This document shows, one piece after another, positions 1,900-46,084 of a DNA stretch of 64,000 nucleotides. The DNA comes from Candidatus Tayloriibacteriota bacterium (lineage in GTDB: Bacteria > Patescibacteriota > Minisyncoccia > Phycocordibacterales > UBA6065). The notes under the pieces are model-generated. The model was given only the letters and a program-made list of their open reading frames with translations. It was not told the DNA's origin and searched no databases. The translations under genes and the position numbers were made by a program. Position 1 is the stretch's first letter. Every line of letters begins with the position of its first letter. The DNA is taken from assembly GCA_016215405.1 (NCBI GenBank), contig JACRJQ010000007.1:71297-135296 (forward strand). Direction: 5' to 3'.

Positions 1900-2682
1900 T
1901 TATTCGACAGAGGATGCGTCTCGCGCGCCAGTAGACGTCGACGCCTCGACCGAGGCCTCGTGCCGGGCCTCAAGGACGGCCCTGAGGGCGTTCACGAGCC
2001 TCGCTTGAGCGTTCGACGAGAGAGCGGCGGACGCCTCGGTCCTCGCTATCGCGCCGGCAGTCGCAGTAAGGTCCGTCTCGATATCCTCCGTATTCTCGCC
2101 GGTGACGAAGAGGGCCGCCCACCACGGACGGTCTATCTCTATCTCGCCTCCGGCATAGACCGTGGCGCGGGTCGACACCGTCACCGGGACGATGCCGATG
2201 AATTTCGCCGGTTCCCTATACCAAACGGAGACCTTCTCTGGGCCAGACTCAATCTTCAAGACGTTATCGTCAGACGCGACGACGGACCTCGCATACGCCT
2301 CGAAATCCGCGGTAGCCGATACCTCCATAGGATCGAGCGTCTCCGACGGCTCTTCCCCTTCTACGTCGCCTTTCGTCACGACGACCGTGCCGCTCTTAGC
2401 CGAGACAGAGGCGCCGGCAGCGACCCCTTCATCGGTTGCGGGCGTCGTGGTCGCTGTAGACGCTTCCGTGCCCGAGCTCTCGCCCGATCGAGCGTTAGAA
2501 GGGCCCGCTTCCGTCCGTAGACCCCCATCGACCGTCGAGGTCGCTTGGACGACCCGCGCGTTAAGCCCGCTCTCTGCCCTGACGTCAACCTGGCCGACGA
2601 TCCCCGCCGCCGACGCGCCCTGCGCGGACGCGAAGGCTCCGAGAGCGAGAGAGAACGCTCCCAATCGCTTGATAGTGTCCAT
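1900..2682 (-). CDS. secreted Ala/Ser/Thr-rich hypothetical protein
   Basis: 260 aa; N-terminal signal peptide (LALGAFASAQGASA); low-complexity surface-protein-like composition; hairpin plus T-run at 1628-1652 on the minus strand. Confidence 0.5.
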   Translation of the reverse strand: MDTIKRLGAFSLALGAFASAQGASAAGIVGQVDVRAESGLNARVVQATSTVDGGLRTEAGPSNARSGESSGTEASTATTTPATDEGVAAGASVSAKSGTVVVTKGDVEGEEPSETLDPMEVSATADFEAYARSVVASDDNVLKIESGPEKVSVWYREPAKFIGIVPVTVSTRATVYAGGEIEIDRPWWAALFVTGENTEDIETDLTATAGAIARTEASAALSSNAQARLVNALRAVLEARHEASVEASTSTGARDASSVE

Positions 2683-2775
2683 AGATATGATGTGTACTTT
2701 ATGGTTAAAACGACTCCGACTTCTTACCTATGAGATACTACGAAAGCAGCTCGGTATTGTTTCGCGGACGAGCCC

Positions 2776-3693
2776 CTACTCTTTGACGCATGTCCTACCG
2801 TCTCTACCGATGTCGAACCTCCTCTCCTTCACTGCGATATCGCCCTGGACGAGCGACACTTCTAACCCTCCTCCGACTCTCACTTCCTCCGTCCAATATT
2901 GATCGAATATGAAATTGCCGAGGGAATAATATATAGGCTTTCCGGCGTAGACCTCGCTCTCTTGGACGATGTGAGGGTGAGAGCCCACGACCAGGTCGGC
3001 GCCAGCGTCTATGAATCGGTGCGCGAGCGCCTTTTGATACTCGTTCGCGGGAAGGTATTCGTCTCCCCAATGCGCGTACACGGCGACGAGGTCGCTCGAC
3101 CTCCTCGCTTTCCAGATAGCGTCTATCGTCTTTTGCGGGTCGTTCTCGCCCAAAAATTGGTTAAACCCCACGAAAGAAAGCCGGTTGCCGCCCTTAACGA
3201 CGGTCGCTGATATGTCTCCTATAGGATCGCCAAAATGCGCGATCCCGCTCTCACGAAGGAGGGCCTTCGTGCTCTCTACGCCCTCTCTGCCGAAATCCCA
3301 TATGTGATTGTTGCCGAGGCTCACGAGTCCGACGCCTGCGCCCGAGAGCGCCTCTATGGCGCCCTTTGAAAAAGTGAAGGTCGTATTGCCTGGCTCGCCG
3401 GGCACGGTCTCTAGCGATATCGAATCGTGAAAGGTGACAGGCCCTTCGAGATTTCCCACTACGAGGTCGAAGCCGGCCAGGTAGTCCTTCGCGCACGAGA
3501 AAAGGTGGTCGTACCCCCGCGACTCTCCTATCTTTCGCAGGGTACGATCGAGCATGATGTCGCCCACGAATAGTATCTTCGTCTCGCCGCCTCTCTCTTC
3601 GCCCGAACGCCCTGACGAGAGGACGGCGAAAGCGATTCCCGTTCCGATCAATATGAGGATAAGGGCCTTTTTTACCTTCGTGTTCATAGCCAT
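2776..3693 (-). CDS. CapA/PgsA-family metallophosphatase (poly-gamma-glutamate capsule synthesis-like)
   Basis: Motifs GDIMLDR, GNNHIWDFG, YAHWGDEY and GADLVVGSHPH characteristic of the CapA family; N-terminal TM anchor. Confidence 0.75.
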   Translation of the reverse strand: MAMNTKVKKALILILIGTGIAFAVLSSGRSGEERGGETKILFVGDIMLDRTLRKIGESRGYDHLFSCAKDYLAGFDLVVGNLEGPVTFHDSISLETVPGEPGNTTFTFSKGAIEALSGAGVGLVSLGNNHIWDFGREGVESTKALLRESGIAHFGDPIGDISATVVKGGNRLSFVGFNQFLGENDPQKTIDAIWKARRSSDLVAVYAHWGDEYLPANEYQKALAHRFIDAGADLVVGSHPHIVQESEVYAGKPIYYSLGNFIFDQYWTEEVRVGGGLEVSLVQGDIAVKERRFDIGRDGRTCVKE

Positions 3694-6861: not shown

Positions 6862-6950
6862 CAGAAAACTAAAAGCCGCTTTTGCGGACTTTTAGTTTTC
6901 TGAGCCACCTAAGAGCGATCGAATCGCTCTGTCCCGGGATCGAAGAGGTT
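6851..6950. repeat. tRNA 3'-flank mirror element (hairpin incorporating the acceptor 3' strand, plus an antisense copy of acceptor and T-arm)
   Basis: aggtggctcagaaaactaaaag-[ccgcttttgcgg]-cttttagttttctgagccacct is a 22-bp perfect inverted repeat; a downstream gagcgatcgaatcgctc hairpin follows; then cccgggatcgaa is the reverse complement of the tRNA T-loop/stem. Confidence 0.6.
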
Positions 6951-6963
6951 CTCCTATATTTCT

Positions 6964-7115
6964 GAGGGATTCCTATTCCGAAGAAATGGGAAACCTGTAC
7001 TGCGGCTGTAAGCCGAGATTCTCGGGAGGAATCGAAAGGGTTCCCTGTTGTCTTCGAGGACTTCTATCCGAGAAAACTGAAACCTATACTGCCGCCGTAG
7101 GCAAAGACCCTCGGA
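6964..7115 (+). repeat. two imperfect tandem repeats of about 62 nt (period 89)
   Basis: gagggattcctattccgaagaaatgggaaacctgtactgcggctgtaagccgagattctcggg versus gaggacttctatccgagaaaactgaaacctatactgccgccgtaggcaaagaccctcgga. Confidence 0.5.
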
Positions 7116-7292
7116 TCGCATCCTGAATTATTTTGCTTTCGTAATACCTCCAAGCGGCCTGTCGTTAACTTCCCTCCCGCTTAAGCTTTTATACCCATCA
7201 TGAAAGACGTCTTCTGGGCATTCTTCTCCCTTTTCTATTGCATCACGATGGCGATCATCGAAAGACTGAAAGGCAAACACAGAAAATAGCCG

Positions 7293-9262: not shown

Positions 9263-9424
9263 GCGTGTTATCGATAACCTTCCTAAATGGAAGCTACAGA
9301 TAGTACGTAAGCGCCGCAGGAGAGGTGTCAGGGCGGGACTCGGTCACAGGTCGTTTTCTGCTGAAAACGCCCGCCACCCCGCCTCGCGCTTTACGGATAT
9401 GCTCCCAGCATATCCTCACGCTCC

Positions 9425-9487
9425 GGCTTTCGAGTCCCTACTCCGCAAAGCAAAAAGCGTCCGAGAATGGACGCTTTTTGCTTTATG
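9425..9487. repeat. tRNA 3'-flank mirror element downstream of tRNA-Asp
   Basis: 16-bp perfect hairpin aaagcaaaaagcgtcc/ggacgctttttgcttt adjacent to the tRNA 3' end; ttcgagtccc at about 9429-9438 is an antisense copy of the tRNA-Asp T-loop/stem. Confidence 0.5.
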
Positions 9488-9562: not shown

Positions 9563-9640
9563 ATGCTGGGATATTTAAGCATAAACGGCCTTAAAAATCG
9601 AGAGTCTATCGACCCTTCGCTTAAGATCGCTTACCGCTTG

Positions 9641-9941: not shown

Positions 9942-10427
9942 ATGAATAGGAATTCTTGGATCGCGGTCGTAGTTATCGTCATCCTCATCGTCCTCGGCAT
10001 ATTCATGTTCCGATCGGACGACGCGGCCGCGCCAGGCGAAGGCGACGCGACGAGCACTCCCCTCTCCGGAACGACGACCGTAAGGCCCTACGGCCAGGTG
10101 ACCCTCAAGCTCGGCGAAACGGCGGCGTTTCGAGGGATAACGTTCAGGCCGACCTCGATAATCGAAGATTCTAGGTGCCCTCAGGACGTCCAGTGCATCC
10201 AAGCCGGCACGGTGCGCGTGAACGTCGAATCGGAGCTCGACAGCGGCGTAACGCGCCAAGACGCTATCGGCCTTAACGCGACCTCGACGATCGACACCTT
10301 CCGGATATCGCTCGTCCGCGCCGAGCCTGCGACTTCGGCCGGTAAGACGATACCGAACTCCGATTACAGGCTCACGTTCGAGGTGAGACAAGGAGCCGTG
10401 ACGGATAGCGAGCTTATAGGAAAATAG
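9942..10427 (+). CDS. hypothetical secreted/membrane-anchored protein
   Basis: 161 aa; N-terminal TM/signal anchor (IAVVVIVILIVLGIFMF); no family recognised. Confidence 0.5.
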   Translation: MNRNSWIAVVVIVILIVLGIFMFRSDDAAAPGEGDATSTPLSGTTTVRPYGQVTLKLGETAAFRGITFRPTSIIEDSRCPQDVQCIQAGTVRVNVESELDSGVTRQDAIGLNATSTIDTFRISLVRAEPATSAGKTIPNSDYRLTFEVRQGAVTDSELIGK

Positions 10428-10450
10428 CGAGCCCGACTCCAAAGCCGCCC

Positions 10451-11221
10451 TCAGGCGGCTTTTCGCTGTCCGATCTCGAAATCGAGATAGACCGGAGAGT
10501 GGTCGGAGACGACATCGGGAAGGACTTTGAAGTCTTTCACTTCTATGTCCTCCGATACGAAGACGTAGTCAGCAAACCGATGCGGCTTCTTGTAGACCTC
10601 CGTGCGGGTCGAAGCGATGCCGTATTCCTTTATGAGATTCCTCATTCCCGCCCTTTCGATCACGCGTATGCTCTCCGTATCGGGTAAAAGGTTGAAATCC
10701 CCCATGAGGATCTTCGGACAGTCGAACAGGGACATGAACCTCACGATGGCCTCTGACTGAAGGAGCCTCTTCGAGCTATCGCCCTTCCCCTCAGGACGGT
10801 GTGTGAGATGGGCATTGAGGACGAGTAGGCTCTTTCCCTTCATCTCGATCTCAAGCCACTGGAGCTTTCTGTTATGGTCGCCCTTGCCGTCATAATCGCC
10901 TCCATGCCAGTCGCCGCGGGCCACGAGAGCCTCTCCGAAGCTTATGACCTTGATATCTGGCCTCATAAAAGCCGAGAGGCCATATATGTCCCGAAAGGTC
11001 GGACAGAAATAATCCTTATAGGGGGTAAGGAGGGCCGAAAGCGTCTGGTTAAGGGAGAAATCGGGTTTCTCGTATCCGCCGATGGCGACGAACTCCTCTT
11101 CCTTCTTCGAGTTATAGACCTCTTGAAAAAGCCAGAGGTCTACGTCGCGATAGCGATTGAAAAATCCCGAGAAACGATCCTTCATCCTGCCGCCCCAGGC
11201 GTTAAGCGTCACGATCTTCAT
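10451..11221 (-). CDS. endonuclease/exonuclease/phosphatase (EEP) family protein
   Basis: 256 aa; MGDFN and SDHSPV catalytic motifs typical of EEP-fold enzymes. Confidence 0.7.
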   Translation of the reverse strand: MKIVTLNAWGGRMKDRFSGFFNRYRDVDLWLFQEVYNSKKEEEFVAIGGYEKPDFSLNQTLSALLTPYKDYFCPTFRDIYGLSAFMRPDIKVISFGEALVARGDWHGGDYDGKGDHNRKLQWLEIEMKGKSLLVLNAHLTHRPEGKGDSSKRLLQSEAIVRFMSLFDCPKILMGDFNLLPDTESIRVIERAGMRNLIKEYGIASTRTEVYKKPHRFADYVFVSEDIEVKDFKVLPDVVSDHSPVYLDFEIGQRKAA

Positions 11222-11386
11222 AGGGAAAGTATAGCAAAAGACGCCTTACTGGACGTTTGTCATACATCTTGCGGAAGGGTTTGAATTATCATGAATCGCT
11301 AAGTCTTTTGCTGCAGAAGCCAGCAAAAGCCCAAGTGTTCGCGATCCCGCCTCGCCCGTCTCGCTTCGCTCGACATGGCTGCGACC

Positions 11387-11477
11387 TTCAAATCCAACCC
11401 GACGAACGTCTCAGGCGTTCGTCTCCCGCAACAAGCATGAAAAAAACCGCTATCAATAGCGGTTTTTTTCATGCTTG

Positions 11478-11484
<7 letters not shown>
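11387..11484. repeat. tRNA 3'-flank mirror element downstream of tRNA-fMet
   Basis: Perfect palindrome gcaacaagcatgaaaaaaaccgctat/atagcggtttttttcatgcttgttgc includes the tRNA 3' end; an antisense acceptor copy cccgcaaca; a gacgaacg...cgttcgtc hairpin insertion; an antisense T-arm copy ttcaaatccaaccc. Confidence 0.55.
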
Positions 11485-11551
<67 letters not shown>

Positions 11552-30919: not shown

Positions 30920-31005
30920 CGGAGACGGAGAGAATTTCGGTCCTTACAGGACCAGTACCCCGATTGGCGCGAGTACGCGGCTCAATCGGGCTTCGAATCT
31001 CTCAC
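30920..31005. repeat. 86-bp direct repeat, copy 1 (duplicated tRNA-Ser mirror element)
   Basis: Identical to 31076-31161 by eye. Begins with ggagacggagaga, antisense of the tRNA-Ser 3' end; ends with ttcgaatctctcac, antisense of the T-loop/stem; two internal hairpins. Confidence 0.8.
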
Positions 31006-31075
31006 ACCCCTATCGATGATTCGGTCACAGGTTTTCGCTTGCTAGCGAAACCCGCGACCCCGCCTCGCGCCGTCG

Positions 31076-31161
31076 CGGAGACGGAGAGAATTTCGGTCCT
31101 TACAGGACCAGTACCCCGATTGGCGCGAGTACGCGGCTCAATCGGGCTTCGAATCTCTCAC
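31076..31161. repeat. 86-bp direct repeat, copy 2 (tRNA-Ser mirror element)
   Basis: Same 86 bp as copy 1, period 156. Followed by a gcaggcgtaccacgcctgc hairpin and a sense-strand ctcgtctccgcca. Confidence 0.8.
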
Positions 31162-31227
31162 GCAGGCGTACCACGCCTGCTCGTCTCCGCCAAACAAAAA
31201 ACGGCACTTTCGTGCTCGTTTTTGTAT

Positions 31228-41898: not shown

Positions 41899-41972
41899 GC
41901 GCCTATAGCTCAGTTGGTTAGAGCATCGAGCTTATACCTCGAGGGTCCTTGGTTCGAGTCCAAGTAGGCGCA
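41899..41972 (+). tRNA. tRNA-Ile (anticodon TAT)
   Basis: Acceptor GCGCCTA/TAGGCGC, anticodon stem TCGAG/CTCGA with loop CTTATAC, T-arm CTTGGTTCGAGTCCAAG. Confidence 0.8.
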
Positions 41973-41980
41973 CCGACATA

Positions 41981-42632: not shown

Positions 42633-44567
42633 TTACGGCTGGTGCTCTATGTCTTTCTTCTTCTTCGGTATCACTCCATGAGCGACGAGTATCTTCTCGA
42701 AATCGTCCCTCTCGATGGTCTCTGCTTCCATGAGCCTCTCCGCGATCGCGTCGAGAAGCTTCCTGTGGGTCTTGACGGTCTTCTCCGCTTTCTCCATACC
42801 TTCCGTCATTATCGACTTCACCTCGGCGTCTATCTCGGCGGCGACCCTCTCCGAATACTCGCCCTCGTCGACGCCTTTGCCGAAGAGCACCCGCCCGCCC
42901 GCGCTCTCGAGTGCGACAGGGCCCATCTTCTCCGACATGCCGTATTTAGTGACCATGTCGCGCGCGAGCGCGGTCGAGACCTGAAGATCGTTCGAAGGGC
43001 CGGTCGTAAGGTCCCCGAATATCATCCTCTCCGTGACATAGCCGCCGAGAGAGACCGCGATGTCGTCGAGGAATTCCCTCTTGGACTGGAGCTTCCTGTC
43101 TTCGAGAGGCAGATGGAGCACGTACCCGGCCGCCCTACCTCTCGAGATTATCGATATCTTATGCACCGGATCCGCGTAATCGAGGACCGAGGAGACGACC
43201 GCGTGGCCCGCCTCGTGGTACGCGGTTATCTTCTTCTCTTCCATAGAGAGGAGATGGCTCTTGCGCTCGGGGCCGAGCATGACTTTTTCGATGGCGCGGA
43301 TAAGGTCGTACTGAGAGACCTTCGTCCTGTTCTCGCGCGCGGCGAGTATGGCGCCCTCGTTCATGAGGGAGTAGAGGTCTGCGCCCGAGAACCCAGGCGT
43401 CCTCTCTGCCACGACGCGCAGGTTCACATCCTCGGCGAACGGCTTCTTACGGGCATGTATCTTGAGGATCTCCTCACGGTCGTTTCGGTCGGGGACGTCT
43501 ATGGTGACGCGACGGTCGAATCGTCCGGGCCTTAGGAGCGCGGGGTCGAGGACATCGGGCCTGTTCGTCGCCGCCATGACGATGACCTTCTCGTTCGGCT
43601 CGAAGCCGTCCATCTCGACGAGTATCTGATTGAGGGTCTGCTCCCTTTCGTCGTTGCCGCCTCCCATGCCTACGCCGCGCGAGCGCCCCACGGCGTCTAT
43701 CTCGTCGACGAATATGATGGCGGGTGCCGCCGCCTTCGCCATCTTGAAAAGGTCGCGCACGCGCGAAGCGCCGACGCCCACGAACATCTCGACGAACTCG
43801 GATCCCGAGATCGAGAAGAACGCGACGCCCGCCTCGCCCGCCACCGCTCGCGCGAGGAGGGTCTTACCCGTTCCCGGAGCGCCCATGAGGAGGATGCCCT
43901 TCGGTATGACCGCCCCCACGTCGAGGAACTTCTTCGGGTTCTTGAGGAAGTCTACGATCTCCATGAGCTCCTGCTTCGCTTCTCTCGCGCCCGCGACGTC
44001 CTTGAACGTCACCTTCTGCTTCTTGTCCTGGGGCAACGTTATGCGCGCCTTCGACTGGCCGAAGGAGAATGCCTGCATGCCCGCGCCCTTGACCTGCCGC
44101 GAGAGGAGCCAGATGAAGAATCCTATGAATACGAGCGGGATGAGGAACGGCGCGAGGTTGAGTATCCAATAGCCTGCGCCGCCCGGCTCCTTGACGTCGA
44201 TCTTCACCGCCGCGATCTGCGACGGCAGGACGCCGTAGTTCGTGAGGGTGGACGTGAGAGCGTTGTCAGACTCTTTTTTTGAGCTCTTGATCGTGCCGTC
44301 GGCATAGGTCGCTTTGAGGCTGTCTCCGTCGACCTCGATGGACGTCACCATGCCCTTCGAGACATCGACCGAGAGCTCGGAGAGCGACACGAGGACCTTC
44401 TCCTCCTGCGACGACGTGAGGATCGAATAGAGTGCGATGAGGAGGAAGAATATGAGAAGCCCCGTACCGAAGCTGCCCAGGAATCGCCCTAGGTTCTGGC
44501 GCGGGTCCCCTTTCTTTTTGCCTCCGCCCTTGCGAGGCTCGCGTTGTATTTGAAATTGAAGTGGCAT
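42633..44567 (-). CDS. ftsH: ATP-dependent zinc metalloprotease FtsH
   Basis: 644 aa; 2 TM, AAA+ Walker [17 protein letters not shown] zinc-binding motif. Confidence 0.95.
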
Positions 44568-44644: not shown

Positions 44645-45091
44645 ATGGCCTTGGCCGACAACAAAAAAGCGCGATTCGACTACGAGATAATCGAGACCAT
44701 CGAGGCCGGGATCGAGCTTTTAGGCATGGAAGTTAAGTCCATAAGGACCCACGGAGCGACTTTAGACGGCGCCTACGTAACAATACGAGGCGGAGAGGCG
44801 TATATGATGCAGATGTCCGTGCCTCCCTACCAGCCGACGAACTCGCCGAAGGAGTATGACCCCTTGAGGATCCGCCGGCTCCTCCTTACGAAGAAGGAGA
44901 TACGAAAATTGGCCGATATCGAGGCCGGCAAAGGGTTGACAATAGTGCCAATTAAGGTGTATAATAAAGGGAAGAAGGTCAAGATCGCCATCGGGATCGC
45001 CCGTGGCAAGAAGACCTTCGACAAGAGAGAGTCGATAAAGAAGAGAGAGACGGACAGAGAGTCGAGAAGGACATTGAAATACGAAGAATAG
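44645..45091 (+). CDS. smpB: SsrA-binding protein SmpB
   Basis: 148 aa; NKKARFDYEI...GMEVKSIR N-terminus typical of SmpB. Confidence 0.9.
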   Translation: MALADNKKARFDYEIIETIEAGIELLGMEVKSIRTHGATLDGAYVTIRGGEAYMMQMSVPPYQPTNSPKEYDPLRIRRLLLTKKEIRKLADIEAGKGLTIVPIKVYNKGKKVKIAIGIARGKKTFDKRESIKKRETDRESRRTLKYEE

Positions 45092-45105: not shown

Positions 45106-45495
45106 GGGGATGATCGGCCTAGACATGCGATTCCCTTCCCTTTGCGCGCGATAGAGCTCCGACAACTCTTTAAACTGCCGGAAACCACAAATGCTAAATC
45201 CGTTAAATCGCCGTTTACGGCTAACGATTTTTCATTCGCTTACGCAATAGCCTAAGCGACATCGCACTCCTCGCATTCCTGGCGCGGGAGAGAGCGGTGT
45301 TATAGATCCAGGATAGAGCCCGACCCGCTTCGGTCCCGCTCGAAAGGCTTCGGCCTCATGAAGCTCGGCGCCCGCGCGTTCTGGAACTCTTAGAGCGCGT
45401 CCGCTTAAATCCGCCTTCGGCGGAAAGACTTCCTACATCGCGTAGACACAATCGGAAATTTCGCTTGCACCCGAGTTCGATTCTCGGCATCTCCA
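45106..45495 (+). ncRNA. ssrA: tmRNA (ssrA), one-piece; encoded tag ANDFSFAYAIA
   Basis: Begins GGGGAUGAU 15 nt after smpB. The 5' GGGGAUG pairs with the 3' CAUCUCC including a G3-U70 wobble and A73 discriminator (alanine identity). T-arm CCGAGUUCGAUUCUCGG precedes it. An in-frame GCU AAC GAU UUU UCA UUC GCU UAC GCA AUA GCC UAA (45220-45255) resembles the E. coli ANDENYALAA tag. Confidence 0.75.
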
Positions 45496-45590
45496 CAAAG
45501 CAAGTCGCCCGCAAGGGCGGCTTTTGCTTTGTGGAGATGAGTCGTGCCGGGGGGGGCACGACGTCCGAGAATCGAAGCCCGGTTGAGCAT
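45488..45590. repeat. tRNA-like 3'-flank mirror element downstream of tmRNA
   Basis: catctccacaaagcaag-[tcgcccgcaagggcgg]-cttttgctttgtggagatg long hairpin including the acceptor 3' strand; then gtcgtgcc-gggggg-ggcacgac hairpin; then ccgagaatcgaa, antisense of the tmRNA T-arm. Confidence 0.5.
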
Positions 45591-45808
45591 AATTTATGAG
45601 CAAAGCGAAGTAAATTATCCAACCGCGGGTACTGGTCCTGTAAGGACCGATAAGCGCACTCGCGATCTCGGCTCCACTGCACCATCACCCTTATCCGCGA
45701 TTGGTATCATATATGATACCAATCGTAATCTAACGGTCTGAGGGATCGCGCGTAACCGATGCTCAGACAAATGTATTACACTAAAATGCGAGAACATAAC
45801 ATCCACAT

Positions 45809-46084
45809 ATGACAAAAAGAATATCGATTATCGTCGCGGTCGTGGTCGCATTGCTCATGGTCCCGCTCGTCGCCATGCAGTTTACCGAAGAGGTGCAGTG
45901 GACCGGATCGGACTTCGCCGCCATGGGAGCTCTCCTCTTCATAACAGGCCTTATCCTCGACTTCGCCGTAAGGAAGGCCGGGACGACCCCGCGCAAGATA
46001 GGCTTCGCGGCTGCCATCCTGCTCGGATTCGTCTATATCTGGGCAGAGCTCGCCGTCGGCATCTTCACGAACATCGGAAGCTAG
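45809..46084 (+). CDS. small hypothetical membrane protein
   Basis: 91 aa, 3 TM. Confidence 0.45.
   Translation: MTKRISIIVAVVVALLMVPLVAMQFTEEVQWTGSDFAAMGALLFITGLILDFAVRKAGTTPRKIGFAAAILLGFVYIWAELAVGIFTNIGS

Follow-up and report, generated by a model that had tools for sequence, protein, structure and literature searches.

A one-piece tmRNA gene directly downstream of smpB in a CPR/Patescibacteria genome, with a 20-residue tag typical of its lineage

The window, i.e. the whole 64,000-nt stretch of DNA that was analysed, carries at positions 45106..45495 (plus strand) the gene for a tmRNA (ssrA), which was identified with ARAGORN and with the Rfam model RF00023 and extends from G1 to the discriminator A. 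The gene for its protein partner, smpB (44645..45091, plus strand; 148 amino acids), was found in the ORF list and confirmed by a match to Pfam PF01668 (SmpB; E=3.4e-50). The end of smpB (45091) and the start of the tmRNA are separated by 14 nt; the original prediction was right in placing the two genes side by side. The divergent neighbour of smpB is ftsH (42633-44567, minus strand). An intrinsic terminator follows the tmRNA gene (45502..45533, plus strand; terminator scan), comprising a hairpin at 45502-45523 with 9 pairs, 6 of them G-C, and a U-rich run, and a structured repeat, termed here the flank element, begins at 45531.

Related loci were collected by a search of species-representative genomes with SmpB, for which the best matches were CPR/Patescibacteria metagenome-assembled genomes (labelled Parcubacteria, Nomurabacteria and 'Saccharibacteria') with up to 74% identity, and by a scan of metagenomes with the invariant 19-nt 5' end of the tmRNA, which provided 120 loci, many of them from groundwater. 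ARAGORN identified 95 family tmRNAs in these loci (90 distinct sequences, 87 distinct tags), and five tmRNAs that were missed by ARAGORN were found by Rfam.

The gene order is widely kept in the family. A same-strand smpB lies less than 200 nt from the tmRNA in 61 of the 77 related loci with enough upstream DNA, and of the 33 loci whose upstream sequence is long enough, 24 have ftsH on the opposite strand, at most 1.5 kb upstream of the tmRNA. Furthermore, a perfect sigma-70 consensus promoter (TTGACA-18 nt-TATAAT; 12/12 matches in the promoter scan) is located inside the smpB coding sequence (44936..44965, plus strand). A 12/12 consensus within 250 nt upstream of the tmRNA is present in 37 of 85 family loci, and family matches of at least 10/12 mostly end 120-216 nt upstream of the tmRNA. 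The smpB-internal element is a candidate promoter of the tmRNA gene, and these findings suggest a dual use of the sequence for coding and for driving ssrA. A tRNA-Ile gene (anticodon UAU) occupies 41899-41974; relatives also have this tRNA close to ftsH.

The ARAGORN call for the tmRNA covers 45106-45496 on the plus strand, with the tag AKSVKSPFTANDFSFAYAIA followed by a stop, and RF00023 matches 45106-45498 over the complete model (positions 1-374 of 374) with 86.5 bits, compared with a gathering score of 47 (E=3.5e-32). The acceptor stem consists of seven base pairs between GGGGAUG (45106-45112) and CAUCUCC (45488-45494) and contains the G3-U70 pair; the discriminator, A73, is A45495, and the next three nucleotides are CAA, i.e. 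CCA is not encoded, as in most family members. All of these features, including the one-piece architecture beside smpB, had been predicted from the sequence and are borne out by the agreement of ARAGORN and Rfam and by the pairing itself. The T-arm (CCGAG-UUCGAUU-CUCGG, 45471-45487, plus strand) was read from the sequence and occupies, together with the acceptor 3' strand (CAUCUCC), positions 45471..45494 (plus strand; also marked by T-stem covariation). Pseudoknot PK1 (AGAG/CUCU and UCCG/CGGA; 45153..45182, plus strand) was located by sequence reading and the Rfam alignment. Helix 5 is a hairpin of UCGCUUA with UAAGCGA (45236..45259, plus strand; sequence reading, pairs kept in relatives), in which the F-A-Y codons of the tag (45236-45242) pair with the stop codon and the following 4 nt (45253-45259), and the final three codons form the loop.

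The structure is conserved beyond the sequence. Compensatory changes were found in 45 of 57 nested pairs in an RNAalifold analysis with 36 relatives, G3-U is invariant in 36/36 relatives, and in the same alignment four of the five T-stem pairs exchange among GC, CG, AU and UA. The first stem of PK1 covaries in the alignment of relatives (AGAG/CUCU, GGAG/CUCC, CGAG/CUCG, CACA/UGUG), and for each of the seven helix 5 pairs, between 59 and 80 of the 90 family tmRNAs have a standard pair. A two-piece (permuted) tmRNA (RF04321) was also considered and was rejected; the one-piece model fits from end to end, and the RF04321 match is weak (22.3 bits, compared with 47) and represents only the pairing of the tmRNA 3' end with a complement further downstream. 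All sequence-level defining features of a one-piece tmRNA that were tested are present (model score, tRNA-like domain, mRNA-like domain, covariation and SmpB partner). Positions 45106-45495 very probably represent a canonical one-piece CPR/Patescibacteria tmRNA, directly 3' of smpB, with a 20-residue tag that is typical of the lineage and starts at GCU 45193. As such, the gene encodes an ordinary ribosome-rescue RNA, for which the corrected tag and the lineage survey are a useful annotation and no surprise.

The tag frame (45193..45255, plus strand; ARAGORN, Rfam alignment, codon conservation) comprises the resume codon GCU at 45193, 20 codons (45193-45252) that encode AKSVKSPFTANDFSFAYAIA, and the stop codon UAA (45253-45255). 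The original prediction had correctly seen that the frame ends in AIA and UAA (45247-45255); the 11-residue tag ANDFSFAYAIA that it read from GCU 45220 is to be replaced by the 20-residue tag. The ARAGORN coding part corresponds to gene positions 88-150, the Rfam consensus resume codon (U-GCa-AAC) aligns onto 45193, and the resume context, AAAU directly before GCU, agrees with this start. The distance from the end of PK1 is 10 nt to GCU 45193 and 37 nt to 45220; a spacing of about 10 nt between PK1 and the resume codon is usual. Furthermore, the nine codons from 45193 up to 45220 show the pattern of translated sequence in relatives. Within them, S-P-[YF] (45208-45216) is invariant as amino acids in 80 related tmRNAs, in which the entropy at codon positions 1/2/3 is 0.10/0.10/1.50 bits for S and 0/0/1.36 bits for P; across the family, S is encoded by TCN and AGC, P by three codons, and the final Ala by all four GCN codons. 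An indel upstream of 45220, relative to the closest relatives, is exactly 3 nt long and keeps the frame. ARAGORN alone is not decisive for the start, as its resume calls among relatives span gene positions 83-124 and are apparently five codons too late in about 15 of them; the tag start is placed at 45193 because ARAGORN, the Rfam alignment, the PK1 spacing and the codon-level conservation of the upstream codons agree. With the start at 45193 and not at 45220, the 'AND' that had been matched to the N-terminus of the E. coli tag is internal to the tag, and the likeness is therefore coincidental. The nearest AIA-ending relatives read ...GAKDFSFAYAIA at this place, i.e. GAKDFSF and not ANDFSF.

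The tags of the family follow the consensus A[KN]..(VAKAK)S[VI]VSP[YF]FG.[KN]DF.FAYAxA, which can be abbreviated to A[KN]...SP[YF]FG..DF.FAYAxA. Ala occupies the last position in 81 of the 87 tags and the antepenultimate position in 80, and Y or F is found at -4 in 72. The penultimate residue, by comparison, has 11 identities among the 87 tags (L, R, Y, I, S, N, T, H, A, K, F), and none of its three codon positions is constrained (entropy 1.67/1.90/1.62 bits). The most frequent ending among the 87 tags is ALA (24), followed by AYA (8), AIA, ASA and ARA (7 each), ANA (6), ATA, AHA and ARV (5 each), VRA (3), AKA, AFA and YAA (2 each), and VYA, ALV, AAA and VLA (1 each); a terminal Ala-Ala is present in only three tags and is absent from the other 84. 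Among the closest relatives with the same short 20-residue tag, the endings are ANA (loci L001 and L090), ALA (L087) and AIA (L002 and L007). The AIA ending had been taken as a sign of a divergent proteolysis-adaptor specificity; as judged from the comparison of tag C-termini, the penultimate residue varies freely across the 87 tags. Because it varies in this way across the family and among the closest relatives, AIA is an ordinary draw at a free position, and the Ile signals nothing specific. The codon patterns indicate that peptide-level selection acts on the last and the antepenultimate Ala, on the aromatic residue at -4 and on the internal SP[YF] and leaves the penultimate residue free, with the caveat that the conservation of F-A-Y may partly reflect an RNA constraint, i.e. 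the helix 5 pairing with the stop codon. What departs from other tags, on the evidence of these alignments, is lineage-wide, namely the lack of a terminal Ala-Ala and the conserved internal SP[YF]FG motif.

For the life cycle of the RNA, the steps below are drawn from established tmRNA biology. The ssrA gene would probably be transcribed together with smpB and/or from the consensus promoter within smpB. RNase P would trim the transcript at G1, the 3' end would be trimmed, and the CCA-adding enzyme would complete it, which it would have to do because CCA is not encoded. AlaRS would charge the tmRNA with alanine through G3-U70, and the charged tmRNA with SmpB would enter the A site of stalled ribosomes. 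The leading Ala of the tag would be carried by the tmRNA itself; translation would resume at GCU 45193, add the remaining 19 encoded residues, KSVKSPFTANDFSFAYAIA, and stop at UAA 45253.

In comparison with E. coli SsrA (tag ANDENYALAA), the shared features are the one-piece architecture, G3-U70, the T-arm, a GCN resume codon about 10 nt after PK1, the stop codon in helix 5, an adjacent smpB, and a C-terminal Ala. The differences are the 20-residue tag with an internal KSPF, the A-I-A end in place of L-A-A, the lack of an encoded CCA, the 14-nt gap after smpB, the consensus promoter inside smpB, and the lineage-wide lack of a terminal Ala-Ala.

For the question of which protease reads the tag, a ClpX-type degron, i.e. 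Ala-Ala-COOH after Leu, is not what is seen here; the tag ends in Y-A-I-A. E. coli ClpX depends on the terminal Ala-Ala (PMC10862746), and since the CPR tags lack it, their degron may be read differently throughout the lineage. One explanation, to which we give slightly less than an even chance, is that FAYAxA-COOH is a protease-switched degron as in Mycoplasma, with FtsH or Lon as the reader and SP[YF]FG as an adaptor site or exosite. Several observations are consistent with such a switch: the Ala-Ala that is critical for E. coli ClpX is missing from 84 of the 87 tags (PMC10862746), the penultimate position admits K, R, H, N, S or T, the endings with an aromatic or aliphatic residue between two Ala resemble tags of Mollicutes and Bacilli (...AVAFA, ...APTFA), SP[YF] is under peptide-level selection, and ftsH is a conserved neighbour. 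The Mycoplasma ssrA tags are Lon substrates (PMC8403727). Those that end in ...YAFA are degraded by Lon rather than by ClpXP. The Mycoplasma tags share with the tags described here the length, the aromatic-Ala-x-Ala end (e.g. ...ANYAFA in M. florum, degraded by Lon) and the setting of a reduced genome; the penultimate residue, typically Phe in Mycoplasma, is hypervariable here and may be charged or polar, and SP[YF]FG is no Mycoplasma feature. The likeness to Lon-read tags is one of sequence pattern. Gur and Sauer reportedly found in 2008 that the Mycoplasma tags are read by Lon. E. coli FtsH also degrades ssrA-tagged proteins.

On the other side, a tag ending in LVA (FKLVA) is a good substrate of E. 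coli ClpXP, with a similar KM (PMC10862746), and a beta-branched penultimate residue alone therefore does not rule out ClpX; gene order, moreover, is weak evidence. No clpP, clpX, lon or sspB gene was found in the 64,000-nt window or in the flanking DNA examined, a result that covers this DNA and says nothing on the whole genome; tblastn with ClpP, ClpX, Lon and SspB (approximate E. coli queries) returned only weak Walker-motif cross-matches, probably to ftsH. A literature search on CPR tmRNA tags and on the Clp and Lon content of CPR genomes turned up nothing directly relevant. FtsH is favoured as the candidate reader from gene order, at low confidence, with ClpXP and Lon as further possibilities.

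It is considerably less probable, and in our view unlikely, that the tag peptide matters little as a degron and that selection acts on ribosome release only, the conserved features being those of RNA structure (helix 5, resume context). The pairing of the F-A-Y codons with the stop-codon region in helix 5 would fit this explanation, as would the observation that proteolytic tagging is dispensable in several bacteria in which rescue is essential (PMC8403727); however, S, P and the final Ala are kept as amino acids with nearly free third codon positions, and the last three codons lie in the loop, where RNA pairing cannot explain Ala-x-Ala. The least credible explanation is that the tag is after all the 11-mer from GCU 45220, with an E. 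coli-like N-terminus and with AIA as the mark of an organism-specific change of adaptor or protease: this GCU is in frame and is followed by ND to give AND as in ANDENYALAA, and AIA endings are a minority (7/87), but the resume codon is assigned to 45193 by both ARAGORN and the Rfam alignment, position 45220 is 37 nt past PK1 where about 10 nt is usual, conservation in the nine upstream codons is codon-like (S-P-[YF]) and an indel there measures 3 nt, AIA-ending relatives have GAKDFSF in place of ANDFSF, and the penultimate residue varies even in the closest relatives (ANA, ALA, AIA).

The DNA directly after the 20-residue-tag tmRNA gene is less ordinary. Beyond the terminator, the final ~40 nt of the tmRNA and 8 nt of its trailer recur in inverted orientation, interrupted by a 25-nt hairpin-containing insert (45540-45564). 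This copy belongs to a flank element of type A1 (45531..45677, plus strand; inverted repeats, nhmmer type A match with E=1.6e-21), which comprises, all on the plus strand, GUGGAGAUG, the complement of the acceptor 3' strand; a hairpin (45541-45562); CCGAGAAUCGAA (45565-45576), the complement of the T-stem 3' strand and the T-loop; the core, with the hairpin GGUCC-UGUAA-GGACC (45634-45648); and a degenerate repeat of the tmRNA 3' end in direct orientation (45663-45677). The segment 45455-45600 folds with -86.7 kcal/mol (z=-9.8). The duplication is confined to the last ~40 nt and 8 nt of the trailer, and no copy of the tmRNA 5' end was found downstream. A minus-strand gene downstream of the tmRNA (tRNA, intron-bearing tRNA or tmRNA pseudogene) was searched for with ARAGORN and with Rfam at E<=10, and nothing was found; a group I intron or known ribozyme was rejected for lack of an Rfam match, and the flank element matches no Rfam 15 family.

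Units of this kind, ~120-165 nt long, often follow tRNA and tmRNA genes in these genomes, on the strand of the gene and immediately beyond its terminator. In this layout, the gene and its terminator precede a sequence exactly complementary to the acceptor 3' strand, a perfect hairpin (~8-10 bp), a sequence complementary to the T-stem 3' strand and T-loop, a core (~70-110 nt), and a direct copy of the gene 3' end that starts in the middle of the T-loop and lies 130-280 nt downstream of the gene; there is no ORF inside the units. Nine units were found in the window, where the layout is also seen at tRNA-Thr(CGU), tRNA-Asp, one tRNA-Met and tRNA-Ser (three tandem units), and at least 13 further tmRNA loci share it, with arms that always match the T-stem variant of the same genome. 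The cores are of at least three types (A1, A2 and B), and one type may stand beside genes of different identity, e.g. A2 at tRNA-Thr in the window, at the tmRNA in loci L128 and L007, and at tRNA-Ser in L145. With nhmmer profiles, 27 copies of type B and 12 of type A were found in 1.19 Mb of DNA, and all but two of them have a same-strand tRNA or tmRNA gene within ~1.1 kb upstream; the distance from the gene 3' end to the start of the first unit is usually 48-97 nt. A LOOT RNA (RF03000) in L145 is a separate RNA outside the flank element.

The units have RNA-like properties. The sense strand folds more stably than the reverse complement in 19 of 19 units (mean difference 6.1 kcal/mol). For 22 type B cores with a hand-mapped structure, 80.2% of the cells are paired, a level that none of 500 shuffles attains (71.7% in shuffles), the covariation score is 0.266 compared with 0.134, and pairing falls to 29-51% when the 3' partners are slid by 1-3 columns; a G-U pair, which would be a C-A mismatch on the opposite strand, is kept in 16 of the 22. 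RNAalifold on a MAFFT alignment of the type B cores, in which hairpin lengths vary, recovered five pairs only. The strand-biased folding, the covariation of the cores and the conserved G-U pair support an element that acts as RNA, on the tRNA-sense strand. Folded as RNA, a unit would mimic the acceptor/T-arm minihelix of its neighbour; in the unit at the tmRNA, G3-U70 is replaced by A-U, and alanylation of the unit would therefore be lost. Release of such a unit would still be possible through processing by RNase P, RNase Z and the CCA-adding enzyme.

The units also have properties of attachment sites. Genomic islands attach at the 3' ends of tRNA and tmRNA genes according to Williams ('Traffic at the tmRNA gene'), as cited in PMC9580842. 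Like their att sites, the flank element ends in a direct copy that starts in the T-loop, as attR would, and the DNA after the tmRNA is unrelated between close relatives. In contrast to genomic islands, the units are only ~120-165 nt long, have no integrase and no distant second copy, hold an exact inverted complement of the gene 3' end as well, contain conserved, covarying and strand-specific RNA-like cores, and combine one and the same core with arms that are adapted to whichever tRNA gene lies next to it. Direct repeats flanking an integrase-bearing segment, the mark of an integrase-borne island, were not seen at the flank element, and a large genomic island bounded by att repeats was rejected, as no locus contained a distant direct copy, out to the locus ends, or an integrase. 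An origin of the cores from phage attP was likewise rejected; two scans of viral contigs (154 loci) gave one genuine, weak nhmmer match (L215). A comparison of empty and filled sites was attempted and abandoned: close relatives have unrelated DNA directly after the tmRNA, and L200 and L145, which are the closest to each other with a tmRNA identity score of 0.93, have no homology downstream of the tmRNA. Conceptually, the units can also be compared with integron attC and with the folded single-strand attP of the CTX phage type, with which they share a long imperfect palindrome (X-spacer-X') with an extra-helical hairpin on one arm; as in integrons, units occur in tandem, with one small ORF between two of them in L007. 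Unlike in integrons, no integron integrase or attI was seen, and the arms are copies of host tRNA or tmRNA 3' ends and not R and L boxes.

We tentatively propose, with confidence that stays somewhat below the midpoint, that the flank units are either an undescribed family of tRNA-linked structured RNA or miniature cassettes that integrate at tRNA T-loops and whose arms match the target. A non-exhaustive search of the searchable literature found no description of such tRNA-flank repeats.

For the window itself, the outcome is a correctly annotated ssrA with a corrected 20-residue tag, and otherwise little changes. For the lineage, the ARAGORN misses and late starts indicate that CPR tag predictions are better made against lineage-level alignments. 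The free penultimate residue, the conserved terminal Ala, SP[YF]FG and the ftsH-smpB-ssrA order provide a testable handle on how rescued proteins are disposed of under minimal proteostasis. The flank element is more unusual than the tmRNA tag and most deserves a dedicated follow-up; if these elements are real RNAs or miniature mobile cassettes, they would represent an uncatalogued tRNA-associated class in a large and poorly studied branch of the bacteria.

The gene order ftsH-smpB-ssrA is conserved in this CPR group. The tmRNA gene (ssrA; 45106-45495, plus strand) follows smpB (44645-45091), the divergent neighbor of the two is ftsH (42633-44567, minus strand), and among the relatives, of 33 loci whose upstream sequence is long enough, 24 likewise have ftsH on the opposite strand, at most 1.5 kb upstream of the tmRNA. 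A tRNA-Ile gene with the anticodon UAU is located at 41899-41974 (plus strand); such a tRNA allows decoding of AUA without lysidine modification (TilS), and it was found near ftsH also in eight related loci (L001, L002, L003, L005, L006, L110, L136 and L145).

The smpB gene contains, at 44936-44965 (plus strand), a sigma-70 consensus without mismatches (TTGACA-18 nt-TATAAT), which overlaps the SmpB codons L-T...Y-N. Of 85 related loci, 37 have a 12/12 match to this consensus in the 250 nt that precede the tmRNA, and the ends of matches of at least 10/12 lie mostly 120-216 nt upstream of the tmRNA. The site is likely an internal ssrA promoter that is encoded within the smpB coding sequence. As for the calling of the tmRNAs themselves, five (L089, L131, L162, L165 and L180) were found with Rfam model RF00023 at 85-118 bits and were all missed by ARAGORN, and in about 15 family members the resume codon called by ARAGORN appears to be five codons late, because an in-frame A[KN]xx[VL] is present just upstream of the called start.

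Immediately past the tmRNA terminator, a flank element of core type A1 is found (45531-45677, plus strand), i.e. a modular structured unit whose arms copy the 3' end of the neighboring gene and its complement. [quoted passage not shown] No match for this element was obtained in Rfam. Its layout is shared with at least 13 related tmRNA loci, and the arms fit the T-stem of each respective genome. Between the element and the next ORF (45809-46084) there is a perfect palindrome of 28 nt (CGATTGGTATCATATATGATACCAATCG; 45698-45725), which looks like an operator.

All copies of the flank element in the 64-kb window are located 3' of a tRNA or tmRNA gene. Among the tRNA-linked units, core type A2 occurs behind tRNA-Thr (CGU) (6863-7120, plus strand), core type B behind tRNA-Asp (approx. 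9322-9445, minus strand) and behind tRNA-Met 11477-11551 (approx. 11286-11430, minus strand), and three units in tandem, with A1, B-like and A1 cores, behind tRNA-Ser (30920-31190, minus strand). Each unit is on the same strand as its neighboring tRNA gene and has arms tailored to that gene; no unit was found 3' of tRNA-Ile (UAU) or tRNA-Thr (GGU) in the window, and the tRNA-Met at 9640 has tRNA-Asp directly after it.

In the related locus L007, a type B unit followed by a type A2 unit (2616-3293) brackets an ORF (2774-3073) for a predicted membrane protein of 99 amino acids, past which a tmRNA 3'-end remnant, a terminator and inverted arms are found; this layout resembles a cassette. Locus L145 contains a LOOT RNA (RF03000, 81.6 bits; 10386-10503) approximately 160 nt 3' of a tRNA-Ser flank element, and this is an RNA separate from the element. 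The tmRNA of locus L200 has pairwise identity scores of 0.85-0.93 with those of L145, L118 and L193, and from the first base past the tmRNA 3' end the DNA is wholly unrelated; in these genomes, the region flanking the tmRNA on its 3' side is a hotspot of hypervariability.
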